Counted from the first letter of the stretch, positions 2,866 through 18,091 are shown. The stretch is DNA of 19,016 nucleotides from a virus (IMGVR_UViG_2636416161_000001:1-19016), one strand, 5' to 3'. A program made the numbers and translations. The notes: generated from the letters alone by a model not told the origin.

Positions 2866-3381
2866 TCAGAGGCCGAGGGCGTTACGGTGTTCTTCCATCA
2901 GGTCCACGCCGTCAACGATTTCAACCATGTTGACCAGATCGACCTCATAGAGCACTTCGCCGTTAATGGTCAGCTTCGCGTAGCTGTTGGTGCTACTGAC
3001 CTTGGTGCTGCTGCTCTCGCCGGTTTTCCACTCGCCGGAATCCACTTCTTTATGACGCCCGCGCACAACCAGCTCAACAGCCTGCACTTCGCCGGTATCG
3101 TCGCGCTGAATGGAACCGGTGAAACGCAGCTGGATGCCGTCAACGGTGGCCTTGCCCATCTGCTTGAATAACAGCAGTTCGGTGCCGCCGATTGAAAATT
3201 CCGTGTCCAGTGCGCCGTCATCCAGCCCCATGTCCACGTCCACCGCGCCCGGCATACCGCCGCCGCGATACTTCTCAAACTTGCGGGTGAATTTCGGCAG
3301 GGTCAGAGACTCAACGATCCCCTGCCAGTTGTTCCCGTCGTTGAACAGGTTCAGATGTTTTAACTTGCGTGGTAAAGCCAT
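2866..3381 (-). CDS. FII: Tail tube protein FII
   Basis: 171 aa ORF MALPRKLKHLNLFNDGNNWQG... with a C-terminal ...MEEHRNALGL, recognised as P2 FII-like; starts 9 nt after the FI stop. Confidence 0.9.
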   Translation of the reverse strand: MALPRKLKHLNLFNDGNNWQGIVESLTLPKFTRKFEKYRGGGMPGAVDVDMGLDDGALDTEFSIGGTELLLFKQMGKATVDGIQLRFTGSIQRDDTGEVQAVELVVRGRHKEVDSGEWKTGESSSTKVSSTNSYAKLTINGEVLYEVDLVNMVEIVDGVDLMEEHRNALGL

Positions 3382-3390
3382 GGTGTCCCC

Positions 3391-4563
3391 TTACGCGCTG
3401 ACCTGGCTGGAGAAATCCAGCAGGTACTGATCGGTGATGCGCTGGCGCAGCATCAGGTTTTCAAGCGGCGGCACCGGCGTGTAGTCGTAGTCGATGGTGA
3501 GCTTCCCGGCTTTCAGGGAGTCTTTATCGTTCACCGACTCATCCAGCCAGCAGTCAGCGCCGATGATGTAGCCCTGCGTTTTCAGGCTGCGCAGCTTGGC
3601 GCGGATACCTTCGATAATGTCACGGGCCAGCGACGGGTTAAGCACGCCATCCACCGCCCACATGTGCGCTTCTGCGATGGTGTCAGCCAGCACCTGCGCC
3701 GTGCGGGTGTAGTTCTCAAAGGCAAACAGCGGATCGTCACTGAGGCAGCGGGAACCCCAGAAGCGGAAGCCATCTTTGCGGATAAGCGTGGTGACATCAT
3801 TCTGGTTCAGCAGCCCCGCATCGGTTGCCGGGTCCTGCAGGTCCCAGAACACATCTGCAGAAATGCCGGTGACGCCATTCACGCCCACGTTGGACAGGGT
3901 TTTGTGCCAGCCGGTCTGCTCGTCAATTTTGGCACGCAGGCCGAGCGCACGGGCGGAGGCGTAAGCCGTCGCGTCTGCATTCAGCACGGTGTCAAAGTTG
4001 ATGAAGTCAGGCCAGATCAGCATCCCCTCGCGCTGACTGAAATTGTCACGGTAGGCAATCGCTTCTTCTACCGTTTTGCAGCCATAAGCGGACAAGTAGG
4101 CAAACCCGCGCAGGCTCTGCGCCACGCTCAACAGCTCAGTAGCAACCGCCTGCGTGTCATGCCCCGGCACGCCGAGAATGCGCGGCTTGACGCCCAGCTG
4201 CGACTGCGCCGAAAGCAGCGCTTTCATACCCGTTTTTTTACCGTCAGCGGTCACGCCGCCGATAATGTTGGAGGTTGTTTCCGCTTCGGTTTCGCCCTGT
4301 GCCACGCGCACAACGACGGTCACGGGTTTAGCCTGGTCGGCAATGGCATCCAGCGAGCGGGCCAGCGTGCCGGACTCACCCGCTTTGCCGCTGGCGGTCA
4401 GCACATCGGTCAGCAGGACCGGCTTATTGAGGGGAAACATGGACGCATCAGCATCATCGCCGGTGCAGACCATGCCCACGATGGCGGTGCTCACCGTGGT
4501 AATGGATCGGGTGCCCTCGTTGACTTCAACAACGCGCACCCCGTGGTGGTAATCCTGAGCCAT
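3391..4563 (-). CDS. FI: Contractile tail sheath protein FI
   Basis: ORF-track ORF 3391..4665; the likely real start is the internal ATG at 4563 ([19 protein letters not shown]...), preceded by GGAGAG. Recognised as P2 FI-like along its length (...[25 protein letters not shown]...). Confidence 0.9.
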
Positions 4564-4636
4564 AAGGCAGTCTCTCCGGTTACAGGGGGTCTGCTTATGT
4601 TCTGAATGATGAGCACATAACGCACGCATCCTGCTA

Positions 4637-4654
4637 TGTGTCAGGCATGGCACA
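4637..4654 (-). promoter_or_regulatory. TGT-N12-ACA dyad, candidate Ogr/Delta-dependent late promoter element for the FI operon
   Basis: tgt gtcaggcatggc aca; centre lies 82.5 bp upstream of the FI ATG, in the 104-bp gap between the invertase stop and the FI start. Confidence 0.5.
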
Positions 4655-4667
4655 ACAAGCGGCAAAA

Positions 4668-5234
4668 CTATTGAGTGGAAGCTAACGGAGTGGCAGGGAA
4701 TTTTTTATAAAGCGTAGATACCCCCACATCAAAAATAAGGGCCACTCTTTGCCGGGTTTCGCCTGCAGCAATTAACCGCCCGGCTTGCTCCCACTGTTCC
4801 GGCGTTAACTTAGGCCGCCGTCCTCCTATTCTTCCTTGTACTCTTGCAGCAGCTAATCCCGCACGAGTTCTCTCAACGATTAACTCACGTTCCATTTCAG
4901 CCAGGGCGCCCATGATGTGAAAGAAAAAGCGCCCCATGGGTGTCGAGGTATCAATGCTGTCCGTCAGACTGCGGAAATTAACAGCCCGCTGCCGCAGTTC
5001 CTCCACGAGAACCACCAGATGCCGCATACTGCGCCCAAGTCGATCAAGCTTCCAGACAACCAACGTATCTCCCGGTGACAGGGTTTTAAGCAGCTTTTTT
5101 AATCCGGGGCGGTCCGATGTTTTACCGCTCATTTTGTCCTCAAAAATCAGCTCACATCCTGACCGCTCCAGCGCATCACGCTGCAGCGCCGTGTTTTGTT
5201 CATTTGTTGATACGCGCACATAGCCAACCTGCAT
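4668..5234 (-). CDS. Serine DNA invertase (Hin/Gin/Cin/Pin family)
   Basis: [38 protein letters not shown]...[15 protein letters not shown]...[35 protein letters not shown]...GVSTLYKKF: catalytic-serine N-terminal motif, resolvase core and C-terminal HTH. Start taken as ATG 5234 (the ORF-track start 5252 is TTG). AAGGGAA precedes the ATG. Confidence 0.9.
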
Positions 5235-5288
5235 CTGTTTTCCCTTATGCAAAAGCCCGAATGATGCCAGCCAGGCAGGAAAACTGCA

Positions 5289-5314
5289 TTTTCTTAAACG
5301 TTGGTTTAGGAGGA
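5289..5314. repeat. Invertase crossover site 1 (gix/hix-like)
   Basis: ttttcttaaacg TT ggtttaggagga; the right half resembles the gix half-site as I recall it (GGTTTACAGGAA). The core TT occupies codon positions 2-3 of the alternative fibre frame. Confidence 0.55.
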
Positions 5315-5644
5315 GCCGCTAAGTTAGATGCAGCAAGTGCATCATTTGGAGAAAATGGCTGGTTGAGATTACCTGTGCTACTTGGCACTGATAAAAAGAC
5401 GCTTATCATTCAATGGGCATACGGCACAGCTGGAGGATCAAATTCTACAGGGCTTGTTTGTAACTTCCCTTTCACCTTTCCAAATCAGGTATTTACAGTT
5501 ATGACTGGTAATGTCGATCAGACATATACGTCAACCTCTATTCCTGGAGCGATAGGGTTCTGCAATGTTACAAGGGCGTCAATTATTGCAAAAAGCACCT
5601 TGTCATCATCAGAACAATTCTATTATCTGGCTATAGGTTATTAA
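5300..5644 (+). CDS. Promoterless alternative tail-fibre C-terminal segment (Sv'-like), expressed only after inversion
   Basis: Open frame ...VGLGGAAKLDAASASFGENGWLRLPVLLGTDKKTLIIQWAYGTAGGSNSTGL...QFYYLAIGY, homologous to the present H C-terminus (...[18 protein letters not shown]...FNYLAIGY). No start codon of its own; in frame with H across the crossover core. Confidence 0.7.
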   Translation, partial: VGLGGAAKLDAASASFGENGWLRLPVLLGTDKKTLIIQWAYGTAGGSNSTGLVCNFPFTFPNQVFTVMTGNVDQTYTSTSIPGAIGFCNVTRASIIAKSTLSSSEQFYYLAIGY

Positions 5645-5645
5645 T

Positions 5646-6077
5646 ATGGATAAGTTTTTTTATAGTCCTTCCAAAAATGAGTTTTATCTTTCTGATTTAA
5701 GATCTGAATACCTTAAATCAGGGGCGTGGCCTGAGGATTCAGTGGAAGTTAGCGATGATATTGTATTTAACTTTATTCAGACGCCTGCTGAAAAAGGAAA
5801 GATGAGAATAGCAGGTGATGACGGCCTTCCGGCATGGACAGATATACCAGCACCAACTCAAGAAGACATAATTGCTGCAAATGAAGACAAAAAAGCAGCC
5901 CTGCGCGTTATTGCAGATTCAGAAATAGCATGGCGACAGGATGCCGTTGATGTAGGCATCGCGACGGAAGTTGAAACCGCCGCGCTTACTGAATGGAAAA
6001 AATACCGGGTGCTGCTGATGCGTGTTGAAACAGCAGACCCGGAATGGCCTACGCCTCCGGCGACTCAGGCCAGTTAA
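5646..6077 (+). CDS. Tail fibre assembly protein (alternative copy, lambda Tfa-like)
   Basis: MDKFFYSPSKNEFY... N-terminus and ...TEWKKYRVLLMRVETADPEWPTPP C-terminus; ATG lies 1 nt after the alternative fibre stop. Confidence 0.8.
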   Translation: MDKFFYSPSKNEFYLSDLRSEYLKSGAWPEDSVEVSDDIVFNFIQTPAEKGKMRIAGDDGLPAWTDIPAPTQEDIIAANEDKKAALRVIADSEIAWRQDAVDVGIATEVETAALTEWKKYRVLLMRVETADPEWPTPPATQAS

Positions 6078-9385: not shown

Positions 9386-9731
9386 TCTCTGCTCCTGTTG
9401 ATACGGAAAGGGAAACAGGCACACCGTTATTACGCCGCCCGGTCAGCTCCACCACCATAGAACCGTCAAAGTTGCTGTTGATGGTGATGGAATCAAGCGT
9501 CAGCCGTGGCTCCCAGCGACTCAGCGCCGCATACACTGCCGACATGACCTGCAGGCGTAATGCCGGATTTTGTGGCTGGTCTATCAGTGCCGACAGCAGG
9601 GAACCATATTCCCGACGGGCAATGCGGCTACCCTGTGGCGTCAGCAGAATGTCCCGCACCGACTGGCGCAGATGGTCAATATCAGTAATGACTTTGCCGC
9701 TGGTATTGTTCATCCCGCTATAAAGCGTCAT
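9372..9731 (-). CDS. W: Baseplate wedge protein gpW (gp25/GPW family)
   Basis: 119 aa ORF MTLYSGMNNTSGKVITDIDHLRQSVRDILLTPQGSRIARREYGS...; ATG 9731 overlaps the V stop. Confidence 0.85.
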   Translation of the reverse strand: MTLYSGMNNTSGKVITDIDHLRQSVRDILLTPQGSRIARREYGSLLSALIDQPQNPALRLQVMSAVYAALSRWEPRLTLDSITINSNFDGSMVVELTGRRNNGVPVSLSVSTGAENGSD

Positions 9732-10306
9732 ACCGGGCCTCCGGTTGTATCGCCGCCTTTCAGGACGCCGGTATGCTGATGCGCATCAACCACGATCCCG
9801 TTAGAACTCATCGCTCCGCCGCCCTGGGTAACGCCACCATTGATCACCACTTCGCTGTTAATGCGCGTGCGGTCAGCCTCCAGTACAAACTCACTGGTTT
9901 TCATGGTGATGTTGTCAGCGGCCTCAATGACCATTGATTTGATGCCCCTGACATACCAGCGCCCGGTGGCGGGTTCGTATTCAAACCAGCCACCGTCAGG
10001 ATGTTCTGTCACGCAGGCGTCCGCCGACGTCGACGGTGGCGCGAACTGATTCGAATAGATGGCGGGTAACGCAAAGGCGGTTTCCAGATTGCCGCCCAGA
10101 CTCAGCAGCACCACCTGCTCACCTTCCGATGGTCGCCACCATGTGCGGGCATTCCCGGCACGCAGCGTCAGCCAGCTGATCCAGTTGGTTTCAAGCTCGC
10201 CCGTTTTCACCCGGCAAAGCCAGTTTTCCCTGTCCACTTCGGTGACTACCCCAGTGCGGATCAGGTTGGTGATAAGGCGCATGATTTCGGTTAATTGTGC
10301 GTTCAT
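9728..10306 (-). CDS. V: Baseplate central spike protein gpV
   Basis: 192 aa ORF MNAQLTEIMRLITNLIRTGVVTEVDRENWLCRVKTGELETNWISWLTLRAGNARTWWRPSEGEQ..., recognised as P2 gpV-like. Confidence 0.85.
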   Translation of the reverse strand: MNAQLTEIMRLITNLIRTGVVTEVDRENWLCRVKTGELETNWISWLTLRAGNARTWWRPSEGEQVVLLSLGGNLETAFALPAIYSNQFAPPSTSADACVTEHPDGGWFEYEPATGRWYVRGIKSMVIEAADNITMKTSEFVLEADRTRINSEVVINGGVTQGGGAMSSNGIVVDAHQHTGVLKGGDTTGGPV

Positions 10307-10352
10307 AGGGAAAGGTTGCCATCAGGGGAAGAAAGGCGGCAGTGCTGCAACT

Positions 10353-10370
10353 TGTATCAGTGCTGATACA
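10353..10370 (-). promoter_or_regulatory. TGT-N12-ACA dyad (perfect 20-bp palindrome TTGTATCAGTGCTGATACAA), candidate late promoter element for the V operon
   Basis: Located in the 68-bp S-V gap; centre is 55.5 bp upstream of the V ATG; no Shine-Dalgarno evident before V. Confidence 0.5.
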
Positions 10371-10374
10371 AAGA

Positions 10375-10821
10375 TCACTCCGCCAGCCATTGCAGAATCA
10401 TGTCGCGGGTCATTGCCTCAACATCATCATTTACACCCAGCAGGCGGCGCTCTGCGTAACGGACCTCCGGTCCTTTGCGACTGACGCGATCACGCAGGCC
10501 GTAATGGTGAACACGGGCAATACGCTGCACCTTGCCTTCAAACTGTACGCTGGCAGAGTCGGCGCTGGCGGCAGTTTTCAGGTATTTTGTGGTGCGCAGC
10601 TTTGCAAACATCTGACGTTTGATGCGGCCTTTTTTACTGCGTGCTGTTACCCGTCGCGGTTCATAGCTGCTGCCGTCAGGGTTGCGCTGCATCCTGATGT
10701 TCTGCTGCTGTGTCCGGCGCAGTTCCTGCGCCAGCTGGCGCATCATGCGACTTCTGGCGGCTGGCTCCAGATTCGCCAGCAAGGCACTCAGCCAGTCGTC
10801 CACTTTCTGCAGTTCAGCCAC
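10375..10821 (-). CDS. S: Tail completion / virion morphogenesis protein gpS
   Basis: 148 aa ORF ...RNPDGSSYEPRRVTARSKKGRIKRQMFAKLRT...; start codon at 10821 is GTG, overlapping the R stop. Confidence 0.8.
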   Translation of the reverse strand: MAELQKVDDWLSALLANLEPAARSRMMRQLAQELRRTQQQNIRMQRNPDGSSYEPRRVTARSKKGRIKRQMFAKLRTTKYLKTAASADSASVQFEGKVQRIARVHHYGLRDRVSRKGPEVRYAERRLLGVNDDVEAMTRDMILQWLAE

Positions 10822-15348: not shown

Positions 15349-16182
15349 TCAGCAATTGGTCAGAGTGTCAGCGGGGGCGTTACCGCCTGTTGCACGCTGG
15401 CGGTAGTCCTGGCGGCTGTCTTCATGACTCAGCTTATTCACCAGTTCGTTAAAGGCGGTCTGCTGTGCCTGCAGGGCAGTCTCCAGCTCAGACAGACGTT
15501 CTTCCTGCTCAGACAGGGATTTTTCGGTGCGTACGCTCAGGTTTTGCTGCTCAGTGGCGACCAACTCCACGGCCTTATGCACATCAGAGAACCGGGCATC
15601 GTCGGACTGCTCTTTTTTGGTGAACAGTGCCGTGACGCGGGCAAACAGGGACGGCTTGTCCTCCTGGATTTCTTCCAGTTCGATCACCGTTTCCTCTGCG
15701 GCGGTAAAGAGATTGGCGGGATTCTGCTTGCGGTTTGCCAGCGGGTTATGGGCTGCACTGGCGCTGAATGTCAGCATTTCAGTGCCCAGACTGGCAGGAT
15801 CATCAGTGGCAGCCAGGCCGACCAGGTAGGCTTTGCCCGTATCAGCAAACTTCGGGCTGACTTCCATAGAGGTGAATAATTTCTGGCCTTTTTTCACCAG
15901 TTCCACCAGGGATTCCGTTGGCTCAACGTCGGCATACAGCGCCATCTTGCCTGCCAACGGACCTTCTGTGATTTCTTCAGCAAACAGCGCCGTCACCTTG
16001 CCGTAGCGGTTAAAGGTGCTGTCCGGCAGATAAGACTTGATGTGCTCAAGGTTAATCAGCGCGGTATACACCGCCGGGTTGTAGCTGGCTGCCATCTGTT
16101 CCAGCCATTCACGCTGGATTTCGCGTCCGTCGGTGGTGGCACCTTCCACCCCGATGCGAAAACGCTTTGCTTTCACTGTCAT
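15349..16182 (-). CDS. O: Capsid scaffolding protein gpO
   Basis: 277 aa ORF MTVKAKRFRIGVEGATTDGREIQREWLEQMAASYNPAVYTALINLEHIK... recognised as P2 gpO-like; GGAG precedes the ATG. Confidence 0.9.
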   Translation of the reverse strand: MTVKAKRFRIGVEGATTDGREIQREWLEQMAASYNPAVYTALINLEHIKSYLPDSTFNRYGKVTALFAEEITEGPLAGKMALYADVEPTESLVELVKKGQKLFTSMEVSPKFADTGKAYLVGLAATDDPASLGTEMLTFSASAAHNPLANRKQNPANLFTAAEETVIELEEIQEDKPSLFARVTALFTKKEQSDDARFSDVHKAVELVATEQQNLSVRTEKSLSEQEERLSELETALQAQQTAFNELVNKLSHEDSRQDYRQRATGGNAPADTLTNC

Positions 16183-16260
16183 GAGCCGTGCTCCGTTAGA
16201 AAAAACTTACTGGAGCCTTATGGTTGCGGTGATGGGGGCAGTGAAACAATGCGCGGTATT

Positions 16261-16278
16261 TGTACCGACAACCACACA
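16261..16278. promoter_or_regulatory. TGT-N12-ACA dyad in the divergent O/P intergenic region (candidate late promoter element for O, P or both)
   Basis: tgt accgacaaccac aca; centre is 87.5 bp from the O ATG and 55.5 bp from the P ATG. It is the only perfect dyad in the 142-bp gap. Confidence 0.5.
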
Positions 16279-16324
16279 AACCGCAGGCGGGGAAAGCCTT
16301 CATTCAAGGCTGTAGGTTTGTGCC

Positions 16325-18091
16325 ATGAACACCACACTGACACCCGCAGATCTCGATCCCCGTCGGCAGGCCATGCTGCTGTACTTTCAGGGATACCGCG
16401 TAGCCCGCATTGCTGAAATGCTGGGCGAGAAAGTTGCAACCGTTCACAGCTGGAAAAAACGCGACAAGTGGGGTGACTATGGGCCGCTGGATCAGATGCA
16501 GCTCACCACCGCCGCACGCTACTGCCAGCTCATTATGAAGGAGCACAAAGAAGGGAAAGATTTCAAAGAGATTGACCTGCTGGCGCGCCAGTCGGAGCGC
16601 CACGCGCGGATCGGCAAGTTTAACAATGGCGGCAACGAAGCCGACTTAAACCCTAACGTCGCCAACCGCAACAAAGGCCCGCGCCGTCAGCCGGAAAAGA
16701 ATGTTTTCACCGATGAGCAGATTGAGAAGCTGGAAGAAATCTTCCATTCCTCCATGTTCAACTACCAGCGCCACTGGTGGGAAGCCGGAAAAGCCAACCG
16801 CATCCGCAACCTGCTGAAGTCACGCCAGATCGGCGCGACCTTTTACTTTGCCCGTGAAGCCCTGATTGACGCCCTGCTTACCGGACGTAACCAGATTTTC
16901 CTTTCCGCCAGCAAGGCACAGGCCCACGTCTTTAAGCAGTACATCATCGACTTCGCCAAAGAAGTGGAGGTGGAGTTGAAAGGCGATCCGATGGTGCTTC
17001 CTAACGGGGCCACGCTTTACTTCCTCGGCACCAATGCCCGCACTGCCCAGAGTTATCACGGCAACCTGTATCTGGATGAATATTTCTGGATACCGAAATT
17101 CCAGGAGCTGCGCAAAGTGGCTTCCGGTATGGCTATTCACAAAAAATGGCGACAAACCTATTTTTCCACGCCATCCAGCCTGACTCACAGTGCTTATCCG
17201 TTCTGGTCCGGTGCGCTGTTCAATCGTGGGCGCAACAAAGCCGATAAGGTGGACATCGACCTGTCCCACAGCAATCTGGCCCCCGGCCTGCTGTGCGCAG
17301 ACGGGCAGTACCGCCAGATAGTCACTGTGGAAGATGCGGTGCGCGGCGGCTGTAACCTGTTCGACCTCGACCAGTTGCGCATGGAGTACAGCCCGGACGA
17401 ATACCAGAACCTACTGATGTGCGAGTTTGTGGACGATCTCGCGTCCGTGTTTCCGCTCAGCGAGCTGCAGGCGTGCATGGTGGACAGTTGGGAAGTCTGG
17501 ACCGACTTTCATGCTCTGGCCCTGCGCCCGTTTGGCTGGCGCGAAGTGTGGATCGGTTATGACCCGGCAAAAGGTACGCAGAACGGCGACAGCGCCGGAT
17601 GCGTGGTGGTGGCACCGCCAGCCGTGCCGGGCGGTAAGTTTCGCATTCTTGAGCGTCACCAGTGGCGCGGGATGGACTTCCGCGCCCAGGCTGACGCAAT
17701 CAAAAAACTGACCGAGCAGTACAACGTGACCTACATCGGCATCGACTCAACCGGCGTTGGTCACGGGGTTTACGAGAACGTGAAAGCGTTCTTTCCTGCC
17801 GTCCGGGAGTTTGTCTACAACCCCAACGTTAAAAACGCCCTGGTACTCAAGGCCTACGACATTATCAGCCACCGCCGTCTGGAGTTTGACGCCGGACATA
17901 CCGACATTGCGCAGTCATTTATGGCAATCCGTCGCGCCACCACCGCCAGTGGCAACCGCCCGACCTATGAAGCCAGCCGCAGCGAAGAAGCCAGCCACGC
18001 CGATCTGGCATGGGCAACGATGCACGCACTGTTTAACGAACCGCTGCAGGGCGAATCCGCCAATACCAGCAATATTGTGGAGATTTTTTGA
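16325..18091 (+). CDS. P: Terminase large (ATPase) subunit gpP
   Basis: 588 aa ORF MNTTLTPADLDPRRQAMLLYFQGYRVARIAEMLGEKVATVHSWKKRDKW... recognised as P2 gpP-like; stop overlaps the Q start (ATGA). Confidence 0.9.
   Translation: MNTTLTPADLDPRRQAMLLYFQGYRVARIAEMLGEKVATVHSWKKRDKWGDYGPLDQMQLTTAARYCQLIMKEHKEGKDFKEIDLLARQSERHARIGKFNNGGNEADLNPNVANRNKGPRRQPEKNVFTDEQIEKLEEIFHSSMFNYQRHWWEAGKANRIRNLLKSRQIGATFYFAREALIDALLTGRNQIFLSASKAQAHVFKQYIIDFAKEVEVELKGDPMVLPNGATLYFLGTNARTAQSYHGNLYLDEYFWIPKFQELRKVASGMAIHKKWRQTYFSTPSSLTHSAYPFWSGALFNRGRNKADKVDIDLSHSNLAPGLLCADGQYRQIVTVEDAVRGGCNLFDLDQLRMEYSPDEYQNLLMCEFVDDLASVFPLSELQACMVDSWEVWTDFHALALRPFGWREVWIGYDPAKGTQNGDSAGCVVVAPPAVPGGKFRILERHQWRGMDFRAQADAIKKLTEQYNVTYIGIDSTGVGHGVYENVKAFFPAVREFVYNPNVKNALVLKAYDIISHRRLEFDAGHTDIAQSFMAIRRATTASGNRPTYEASRSEEASHADLAWATMHALFNEPLQGESANTSNIVEIF

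Follow-up and report, generated by a model that had tools for sequence, protein, structure and literature searches.

Predicted leaderless mRNAs for V and P at dyad-bearing late promoters of a P2-like prophage

Introduction

What fixes the distance between a late-promoter dyad and a start codon that has no evident ribosome binding site, and where does the mRNA of such a gene begin? The question is raised by two late genes of a P2-like prophage, V and P, each of which has its ATG exactly 55.5 nt from the centre of a dyad of the form TGT-N12-ACA, the partial dyad that is quoted as the consensus of P2-type late promoters. An initial annotation of this DNA had proposed that the V and P mRNAs are leaderless or nearly so, and that one dyad serves the divergent promoters of O and P.

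E. coli and its relatives rarely have leaderless mRNAs, and among the few classical examples is that of P2 gene V. Late activation in P2 requires an activator and RNA polymerase's alpha subunit. Christie & Calendar 1985 is the work cited for P2 where the few leaderless genes of E. coli are named, together with those of lambda and Tn1721. The annotation of the P2 record NC_001895, which carries the mapping of the 1980s, places the start of the V operon at 10308, where the V coding sequence begins, and an activator site at 10239..10266. The same record has one 'activator binding site; pO, pP' at 3057..3087, with the P start at 3016 (minus strand) and the O start at 3127 (plus strand), and the record of phage 186 has one B-protein site (3798..3817) for its divergent promoters pV and p12. 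A leaderless V and a dyad shared by O and P are established P2 biology, and what is new here concerns P only.

Materials and Methods

The window is the whole stretch of 19,016 nt (19 kb) that was analysed. The comparative survey covered P2, 186, the window and 80 loci that surround the capsid gene N, the latter taken from a one-genome-per-species collection; as these loci are related, the counts taken from them are not counts of independent events. The identity of N among the survey loci was 57-100%, and the starts of V, P, O and FI were located by tblastn. Phage phiCTX was left out of the survey; its V ATG is about 57 nt away from a TGT-N13-ACA-like dyad, the -10 is ambiguous and P has a GTG start. 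Anti-SD (Shine-Dalgarno) duplex energies over positions -21 to -3 separated the classes of P promoters poorly owing to G-runs far from the ATG, and were replaced by a spacing-aware count of core SD 4-mers. The relatives returned by scans of IMG/VR viral contigs were all 98-100% identical and were used for polymorphism within the lineage only.

Results

Gene order and relatives

The window covers the late-gene region of a P2-like prophage of the Peduoviridae, near Wadgaonvirus and Felsduovirus. The ORF map and Pfam matches give the gene order of P2 in reverse, and the region is syntenic with P2, 186 and phage 500465-1. Escherichia phage 500465-1 (Peduoviridae, Wadgaonvirus) and many Klebsiella prophages match the V-S-R segment at 97% identity. 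In the O-P intergenic region the identity is 100% with phage 500465-1 and 93% with the Salmonella phages SopEPhi and RE-2010. The genes that concern us are, in window order:

FI ATG at 4563, minus strand: FII and FI (ORF map)
After FI: invertase/tail-fibre segment, then G, H, I, J and W (ORF map)
9728..10306, minus strand: V, baseplate spike, 192 aa (PF04717 and PF18946)
10375..10821, minus strand: S, tail completion, last gene of the O operon (PF05069)
Between S and O: the remaining O-operon genes (ORF map)
15349..16182, minus strand: O, capsid scaffold, used as a leadered control (ORF map)
16325..18091, plus strand: P, terminase large subunit, 588 aa (PF03237, PF17289, PF06056)

The stop codon of S lies 68 nt upstream of the V ATG. 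The window ends within the tail genes, and the region in which an Ogr-type activator gene would stand is outside it. In phage 500465-1 (97% identical), a gene after the D homologue, in the position of ogr in P2, codes for an Ogr_Delta zinc-finger protein of 72 aa (PF04606, E 9e-21).

Between G and FI there is a gene for a serine DNA invertase (Resolvase and HTH_7; 4668..5252, minus strand), and two tail-fibre/assembly ORFs (5117..5644 and 5646..6077, plus strand) adjoin it in the opposite orientation. Positions 4668..6077 look like an invertible host-range segment of the Gin/Cin type, and one of the dyads described below (pF) lies just downstream of the invertase stop codon.

Dyads ahead of the late operons

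Three dyads are found ahead of late operons, and by analogy with P2 they are the predicted sites of the phage's own late activator, a zinc-finger protein of the Ogr/B type.

4637..4654, centre 4645.5: pF dyad TGTGTCAGGCATGGCACA, perfect TGT-N12-ACA, upstream of FI
10353..10370, centre 10361.5: pV dyad TGTATCAGTGCTGATACA, perfect TGT-N12-ACA
16261..16278, centre 16269.5: O/P dyad TGTACCGACAACCACACA, perfect TGT-N12-ACA

The pV dyad can be written TGTATCAG-TG-CTGATACA, with perfect 8-bp arms, and it begins 4 nt past the stop codon of S. From its centre to the A of the V ATG (10306, minus strand) the distance is 55.5 nt, and from the centre of the O/P dyad to the A of the P ATG (16325, plus strand) it is again 55.5 nt, so that the coordinates and distances from which the initial annotation had argued are correct. 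The same is true of the two genes that it had set apart: the dyad centre is 87.5 nt from the A of the O ATG (16182, minus strand) and 82.5 nt from that of FI (4563, minus strand), and both genes have GGAG, at 16191..16194 and 4574..4577, respectively. The dyad at 16261..16278 is the only one for the divergent promoters pO and pP, in an intergenic region of 142 bp.

The initial annotation had further counted three dyads in the window. The three positions are right, but the motif TGT-N12-ACA occurs 7 times, where shuffled sequences lead one to expect 4.66; as 7 is attained in 34 of 200 shuffles, the number of motifs by itself does not exceed what chance would give. The remaining matches, four in all (761, 2054, 3330 and 16319), lie within or overlap coding sequence. 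To judge from the sequences compared here, the non-random part is the three matches ahead of late operons and the conservation of their placement, not the number of motifs. One of the four, TGTGCCATGAACACCACA at 16319..16336, overlaps the start codon of P; most relatives have TGGGCC at this place, and the match is probably fortuitous.

The V promoter

10313..10321, minus strand: predicted extended -10 of pV, with TG at -15/-14 (10321, 10320) and the hexamer CAACCT at -12..-7 (10318..10313)

The sequence upstream of V, ...GGCAACCTTTCCCT ATG, has no SD-like stretch and no SD 4-mer. All six bases between CAACCT and the ATG are pyrimidines, which leaves the A of the ATG as the sole purine available as a start. 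The A at 10306 is the predicted start of V transcription, and the V mRNA is predicted to be leaderless.

In the gap between S and V we found no convincing terminator, only a weak terminator-like hairpin (10398..10377, minus strand), and transcripts of the O operon that read through would thus also carry V as an internal gene. The hairpin has 7 pairs, of which 3 are G-C, overlaps the end of S and runs with its T-rich tail into the pV dyad; it could be a partial terminator of the O operon, and the chance expectation is 0.3 per region. V promoters of the P2/186 type (loci L238, L239, L224, L230, L222 and others) have an inverted repeat rich in GC, ATTGCCGCC...CCCGGCGGC, which lies about 15-40 nt ahead of the V ATG and is flanked by their imperfect dyad and a CATCCT hexamer. 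This repeat, which is absent in the window's clade, may be an O-operon terminator embedded in the pV promoter.

The P promoter

16313..16318, plus strand: predicted -10 hexamer of pP, TAGGTT, at -12..-7 from the A of the P ATG

The P2 hexamer for pP, TAGCCT, lies at -12..-7 of the annotated start, and the dyad of the P2 O-P region, TGG-N12-ACA with its centre at 3071.5, is exactly 55.5 nt from both annotated starts, 3016 and 3127. When P2 and the window are aligned from the dyad, no gap is needed for TAGGTT to fall on the TAGCCT of P2 and 186: on the P2 side TGG-N12-ACA is followed by 46 nt, ...GTAGCCTTGCCGT, and then G(+1)TATTCATCACGGCGAGGTATTCATG, and on the window side TGT-N12-ACA is followed by 46 nt, ...GTAGGTTTGTGCC, and then ATG. 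The mapped +1 of P2 pP thus coincides with the A of the P ATG in the window. This alignment strongly supports transcription of P from the A at 16325, which would make the P mRNA leaderless.

The view that neither gene has a visible SD is accurate for V, and for P it needs a qualification, as a weak AGGT is present at -11..-8. This 4-mer is part of the predicted -10 hexamer TAGGTT, for which relatives have TATGTT, TAGTCT, TAATCT or TAGCCT instead, and it could serve as a weak SD, given a longer transcript.

The leaderless V and P proposed from the distances alone thus gain support from several sides: the annotated V start of P2 coincides with the beginning of the coding sequence, and for P the geometry is identical to that of P2 pP and is invariant among relatives (below). 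A comparison with the mapped late starts of P2, which had been suggested as a check, comes out in favour of the proposal, the P2 dyad being at the same 55.5 nt from the starts of pO and pP. The proposal of one dyad for divergent O and P is likewise borne out by the single shared site annotated in P2 and by that of 186 for pV and p12.

Sigma-70 promoters, mRNA structure and start codons

A scan for sigma-70 consensus promoters returned none in 10200..10500 and none in 16120..16400, which fits activator-dependent promoters that have no -35 element in both intergenic regions. The first 45 nt of the predicted V and P mRNAs are weakly structured, with the AUG unpaired. CA-rich downstream sequence has been reported to favour leaderless translation, and the C+A content of codons 2-8 is 0.71 in V and 0.74 in P, against 0.59 in O and 0.54 in FI, although leadered P genes are also CA-rich.

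Both V and P start with ATG, as E. coli requires of leaderless mRNAs, and these start codons are sound by comparison with their homologues. The N-terminus of V, MNAQLTE, aligns with MNTLANI of P2, the first codon is ATG in 70 of 71 distinct V sequences, and the second is AAT, AAC or AAA in 67 of the 71. For P, the reading frame is closed upstream by a TAG (16313..16315), and the ATG at 16325 is the sole start codon ahead of the conserved motif DPRRQA. The RefSeq coding sequences of V and P in 500465-1 have the same lengths as those of the window and the same distances from their upstream neighbours.

O and FI as leadered controls

With the GGAG sites given above, the predicted start of pO transcription falls near 16210..16214, which gives a leader of about 30 nt, and that of pF near 4587..4590. 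For pF of P2, the annotated start is 57-59 nt away from the centre of the site, and the FI ATG is 83 nt away. A block that is conserved in the clade, TTGTTTCAC (16241..16249, minus strand), is found 11 nt downstream of the dyad in the direction of O, at about -35 of the predicted pO, and pP has no counterpart of it. The block resembles a weak -35 (TTGTTT) and also TTGTnTCA, which is the left half of the consensus for the V dyad.

Comparative survey

The distances and motifs found among the distinct promoters of the survey are as follows:

V, dyad to ATG, perfect-dyad promoters: 55.5 nt (24), 56.5 (7), 68.5 (2), 51.5 (1)
P, dyad to ATG, perfect-dyad promoters: 55.5 nt (36), 56.5 (1), 83.5 (1)
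O, dyad to ATG: ten values from 81.5 to 100.5 nt
FI, dyad to ATG: eight values from 78.5 to 85.5 nt
-10 geometry at the ATG (A-11/T-7 or A-12/T-8): V 67/70, P 50/75, O 0/71, FI 3/40
Core SD 4-mer 4-10 nt before the ATG: O 58/71, FI 40/40
Core SD 4-mer 4-10 nt before the ATG: V 0/67 (55-57 class and promoters without a perfect dyad), P 0/37 (55-57 class)

The distance is thus 55.5 or 56.5 nt in 31 of the 34 dyad-bearing V promoters and in 37 of the 38 dyad-bearing P promoters; the single V value of 51.5 belongs to a locus (L200) where the pipeline took as the start a GTG that precedes the ATG by 6 nt. A fixed distance for V and P next to drifting distances for O and FI is what would be expected if the start codons of V and P are tied to the start of transcription and the leaders of O and FI are free to vary.

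The sequence between dyad and ATG has not been kept along with its length. The 46-nt spacers of V form 13 clusters that share less than 60% identity, and the median identity between pairs of spacers is 0.35. In V promoters of distinct relatives aligned on the ATG, A-11 and T-7 are present in 23 of 23, T-15 in 16 and G-14 in 19, and in the P promoters T-12, A-11 and T-7 are invariant in 36 of 36 relatives. The window's hexamers, CAACCT and TAGGTT, are only weakly -10-like, with A-11 and T-7 alone retained. A pyrimidine at -1 followed by an A at +1 is found in 22 of 23 V and in 36 of 36 P promoters.

Near-identical IMG/VR loci, which speak to polymorphism within the lineage only, have the V dyad 54.5-56.5 nt from the ATG in 80 of 80 and the P dyad at 55.5 nt in 80 of 80. 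Several of these loci (among L003-L082) have a V that is at least 98% identical and yet wholly unrelated DNA upstream of it, with a dyad of its own 54.5-56.5 nt from the ATG; the unrelated DNA is probably a moron inserted after S, like orf30 of P2.

A dyad 68.5 nt from the V ATG occurs in just two V promoters, those of a Tatumella locus (L178) and a Scandinavium locus (L188). Just before the V ATG they have purine-rich, SD-like stretches, AGAAGGG and AGAGGA, respectively, and the predicted leader is about 13 nt. They appear to be natural conversions from a leaderless to a leadered V.

The P promoters divide more evenly. Those without a perfect N12 dyad have a core SD 4-mer in 23 of 35, and 14 resemble P2 and 186 in that their hexamer is 29 nt ahead of the ATG. 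These P promoters and the two V promoters with the dyad at 68.5 nt serve as natural controls, and both agree with the leaderless reading. The leaderless type makes up 50 of the 75 distinct P promoters and includes the SopEPhi, Wadgaonvirus, Photorhabdus, Pectobacterium and Yersinia lineages; loci from Pectobacterium, Brenneria and Yersinia have GTAGCCTTGCCGTC ATG at P. Both classes of P, leadered and leaderless-type, occur among phages whose terminase is nearest to that of 186 or P2, which means that the leaderless state of P is not confined to the clade of the window.

Transcript data

Salmonella SL1344 carries SopEPhi, and the dRNA-seq tables published for this strain (PLoS One 2014) list no starts at the V, O and P promoters of SopEPhi. 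The SopEPhi starts that they do list belong to accessory and early genes, apart from one AT-rich start upstream of the sheath gene. The lack of late-promoter starts in these tables is what one would expect of late genes that are silent in a lysogen.

Discussion

Our data favour, with a probability of about 0.8, an account in which the late operons of this prophage have activator-dependent promoters, V and P are leaderless, O and FI are leadered, and one dyad serves both pO and pP. The geometry of the promoters, its match to the annotated starts of P2 and its conservation are shown here, and the 5' ends in this phage, the dependence on the activator and the rationale are inferred from them. An activator of the Ogr/B type would bind the three intergenic dyads and, by analogy with P2, would bring in sigma-70 RNA polymerase at promoters that have no -35 element, with the start of transcription set 55-56 nt from the centre of the dyad. 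At pV and pP the hexamers stand at -12..-7 from the A of the start codon, in the place that an SD takes in leadered genes, which implies that transcription would begin on that A, and the first cistron of each operon would then be translated from a 5'-terminal AUG without an SD. The promoters pO and pF would be of the same type and would be followed by a leader of roughly 25-30 nt with GGAG, and the genes downstream in the operons (W and those after it; Q) would use ordinary or coupled initiation. As a suggested rationale, inefficient leaderless initiation may suit the terminase and the baseplate spike, which are needed in low copy, as opposed to the abundant scaffold and sheath.

The only serious rival is translation of V and P from transcripts with a leader, those of V by read-through from the O operon and those of P from an upstream start that has gone unrecognised, with SD-independent or weak initiation and a distance of 55.5 nt that is incidental to translation. 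The lack of a convincing terminator between S and V and the AGGT at -11..-8 of the window's P are in keeping with such transcripts. Leaders of this kind would leave unexplained, however, why the spacing and the A-11/T-7 pair are locked to the ATG across unrelated spacers while the leaders of O and FI drift; the AGGT ahead of P is not conserved, P diverges from O so that nothing upstream can read into it, and the V start of P2 is annotated on the ATG. We consider leadered V and P transcripts unlikely on this evidence. Still less likely is a mis-assignment of the start codons, in which the true starts would be internal ATGs (codon 9 of V, 10282; codon 17 of P, 16373) behind short leaders. Both ATGs are in frame, but neither has an SD, and the residues ahead of them are conserved with P2 (DPRRQA before Met17 of P, MN... 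at the N-terminus of V), where the residue equivalent to Met17 is Ala. The RefSeq lengths of V and P in 500465-1 match the upstream starts, and so do the near-constant first and second codons among the 71 distinct V sequences.

A further objection would be that TGT-N12-ACA carries so little information that two distances of 55.5 nt could coincide by chance, and the motif count, equalled in 34 of 200 shuffles, lends itself to this argument. The same placement recurs, however, in dozens of diverged relatives and matches the sites annotated as functional in P2 and 186, and the comparative data effectively refute a coincidence. Activator-dependent late promoters with leaderless V and P thus stand as the preferred account.

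Compared with pV of P2, the window has much in common: in both, the operon runs V W J I H G..., the activator dyad is about 55 nt from the ATG, and a hexamer of the CAAnCT type (CAATCT in P2) stands 6-7 nt before an ATG that has no SD, with the P2 start annotated on its A. The differences are that the P2 dyad is imperfect (TGT-N11-ACA) whereas that of the window is a palindrome with perfect 8-bp arms, that P2 has a terminator and the moron orf30 between S and the dyad where in the window only 4 nt separate the dyad from the stop codon of S, and that the window's hexamer is one base nearer to the ATG. The divergent promoters of P2 and 186 are also like those of the window, in that one O-P dyad lies 55.5 nt from both starts and the pP hexamers, TAGCCT and TAGGTT, have an equal offset from it. 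P2, 186 and PSP3, however, have a P leader of 23 nt with a GGCGAGG SD, which puts the dyad 78.5 nt from the ATG, whereas in the window this leader is absent and the ATG is at +1; the O-P intergenic region is 173 bp in P2 and 142 bp in the window. A direct check of SopEPhi places its two dyads, like those of the window, 55.5 nt from the ATGs of V and P. SopEPhi, RE-2010, the Fels-2-type phages (Felsduovirus) and 500465-1 are sequence variants of the window, with records that carry no annotation of promoters or starts.

The predicted V and P mRNAs also resemble the cI mRNA from PRM of lambda and that of tetR of Tn1721, which lack an SD and have their AUG at the 5' end, with a -10 hexamer directly upstream of it. 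Those are regulatory genes with repressor-controlled or autoregulated promoters, whereas V and P are genes for structure and packaging that would depend on an activated late promoter.

Our limited literature searches found no relevant report of a leaderless terminase in P2-like phages, and a leaderless P operon appears to be an unremarked variant that is common among P2-like prophages. If the promoters of the survey are read in this way, most sampled enterobacterial P2-like prophages probably express their terminase/portal and baseplate operons from leaderless mRNAs, and P2 and 186 would belong to a minority with a 23-nt, SD-bearing P leader that was possibly acquired.

No new mechanism is revealed by these findings, and their practical value is modest: start codons of V and P that lack an SD can be trusted in the annotation of Peduoviridae, and the dyad allows the start sites of late operons to be predicted. 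For the family, they describe an arrangement that very diverged P2-like prophages have kept to the single nucleotide and that appears to include the terminase operon in many of them. If this is true, the same gene behind the same promoter would be available as a natural pair, leadered and leaderless, and could be used to probe selection for leaderless initiation in a gamma-proteobacterium, for example through a limiting dose of terminase and spike. P2 and 186, with a leadered P, and phages of the SopEPhi type, with a leaderless one, would then amount to a natural experiment on the costs and benefits of leaderless translation.
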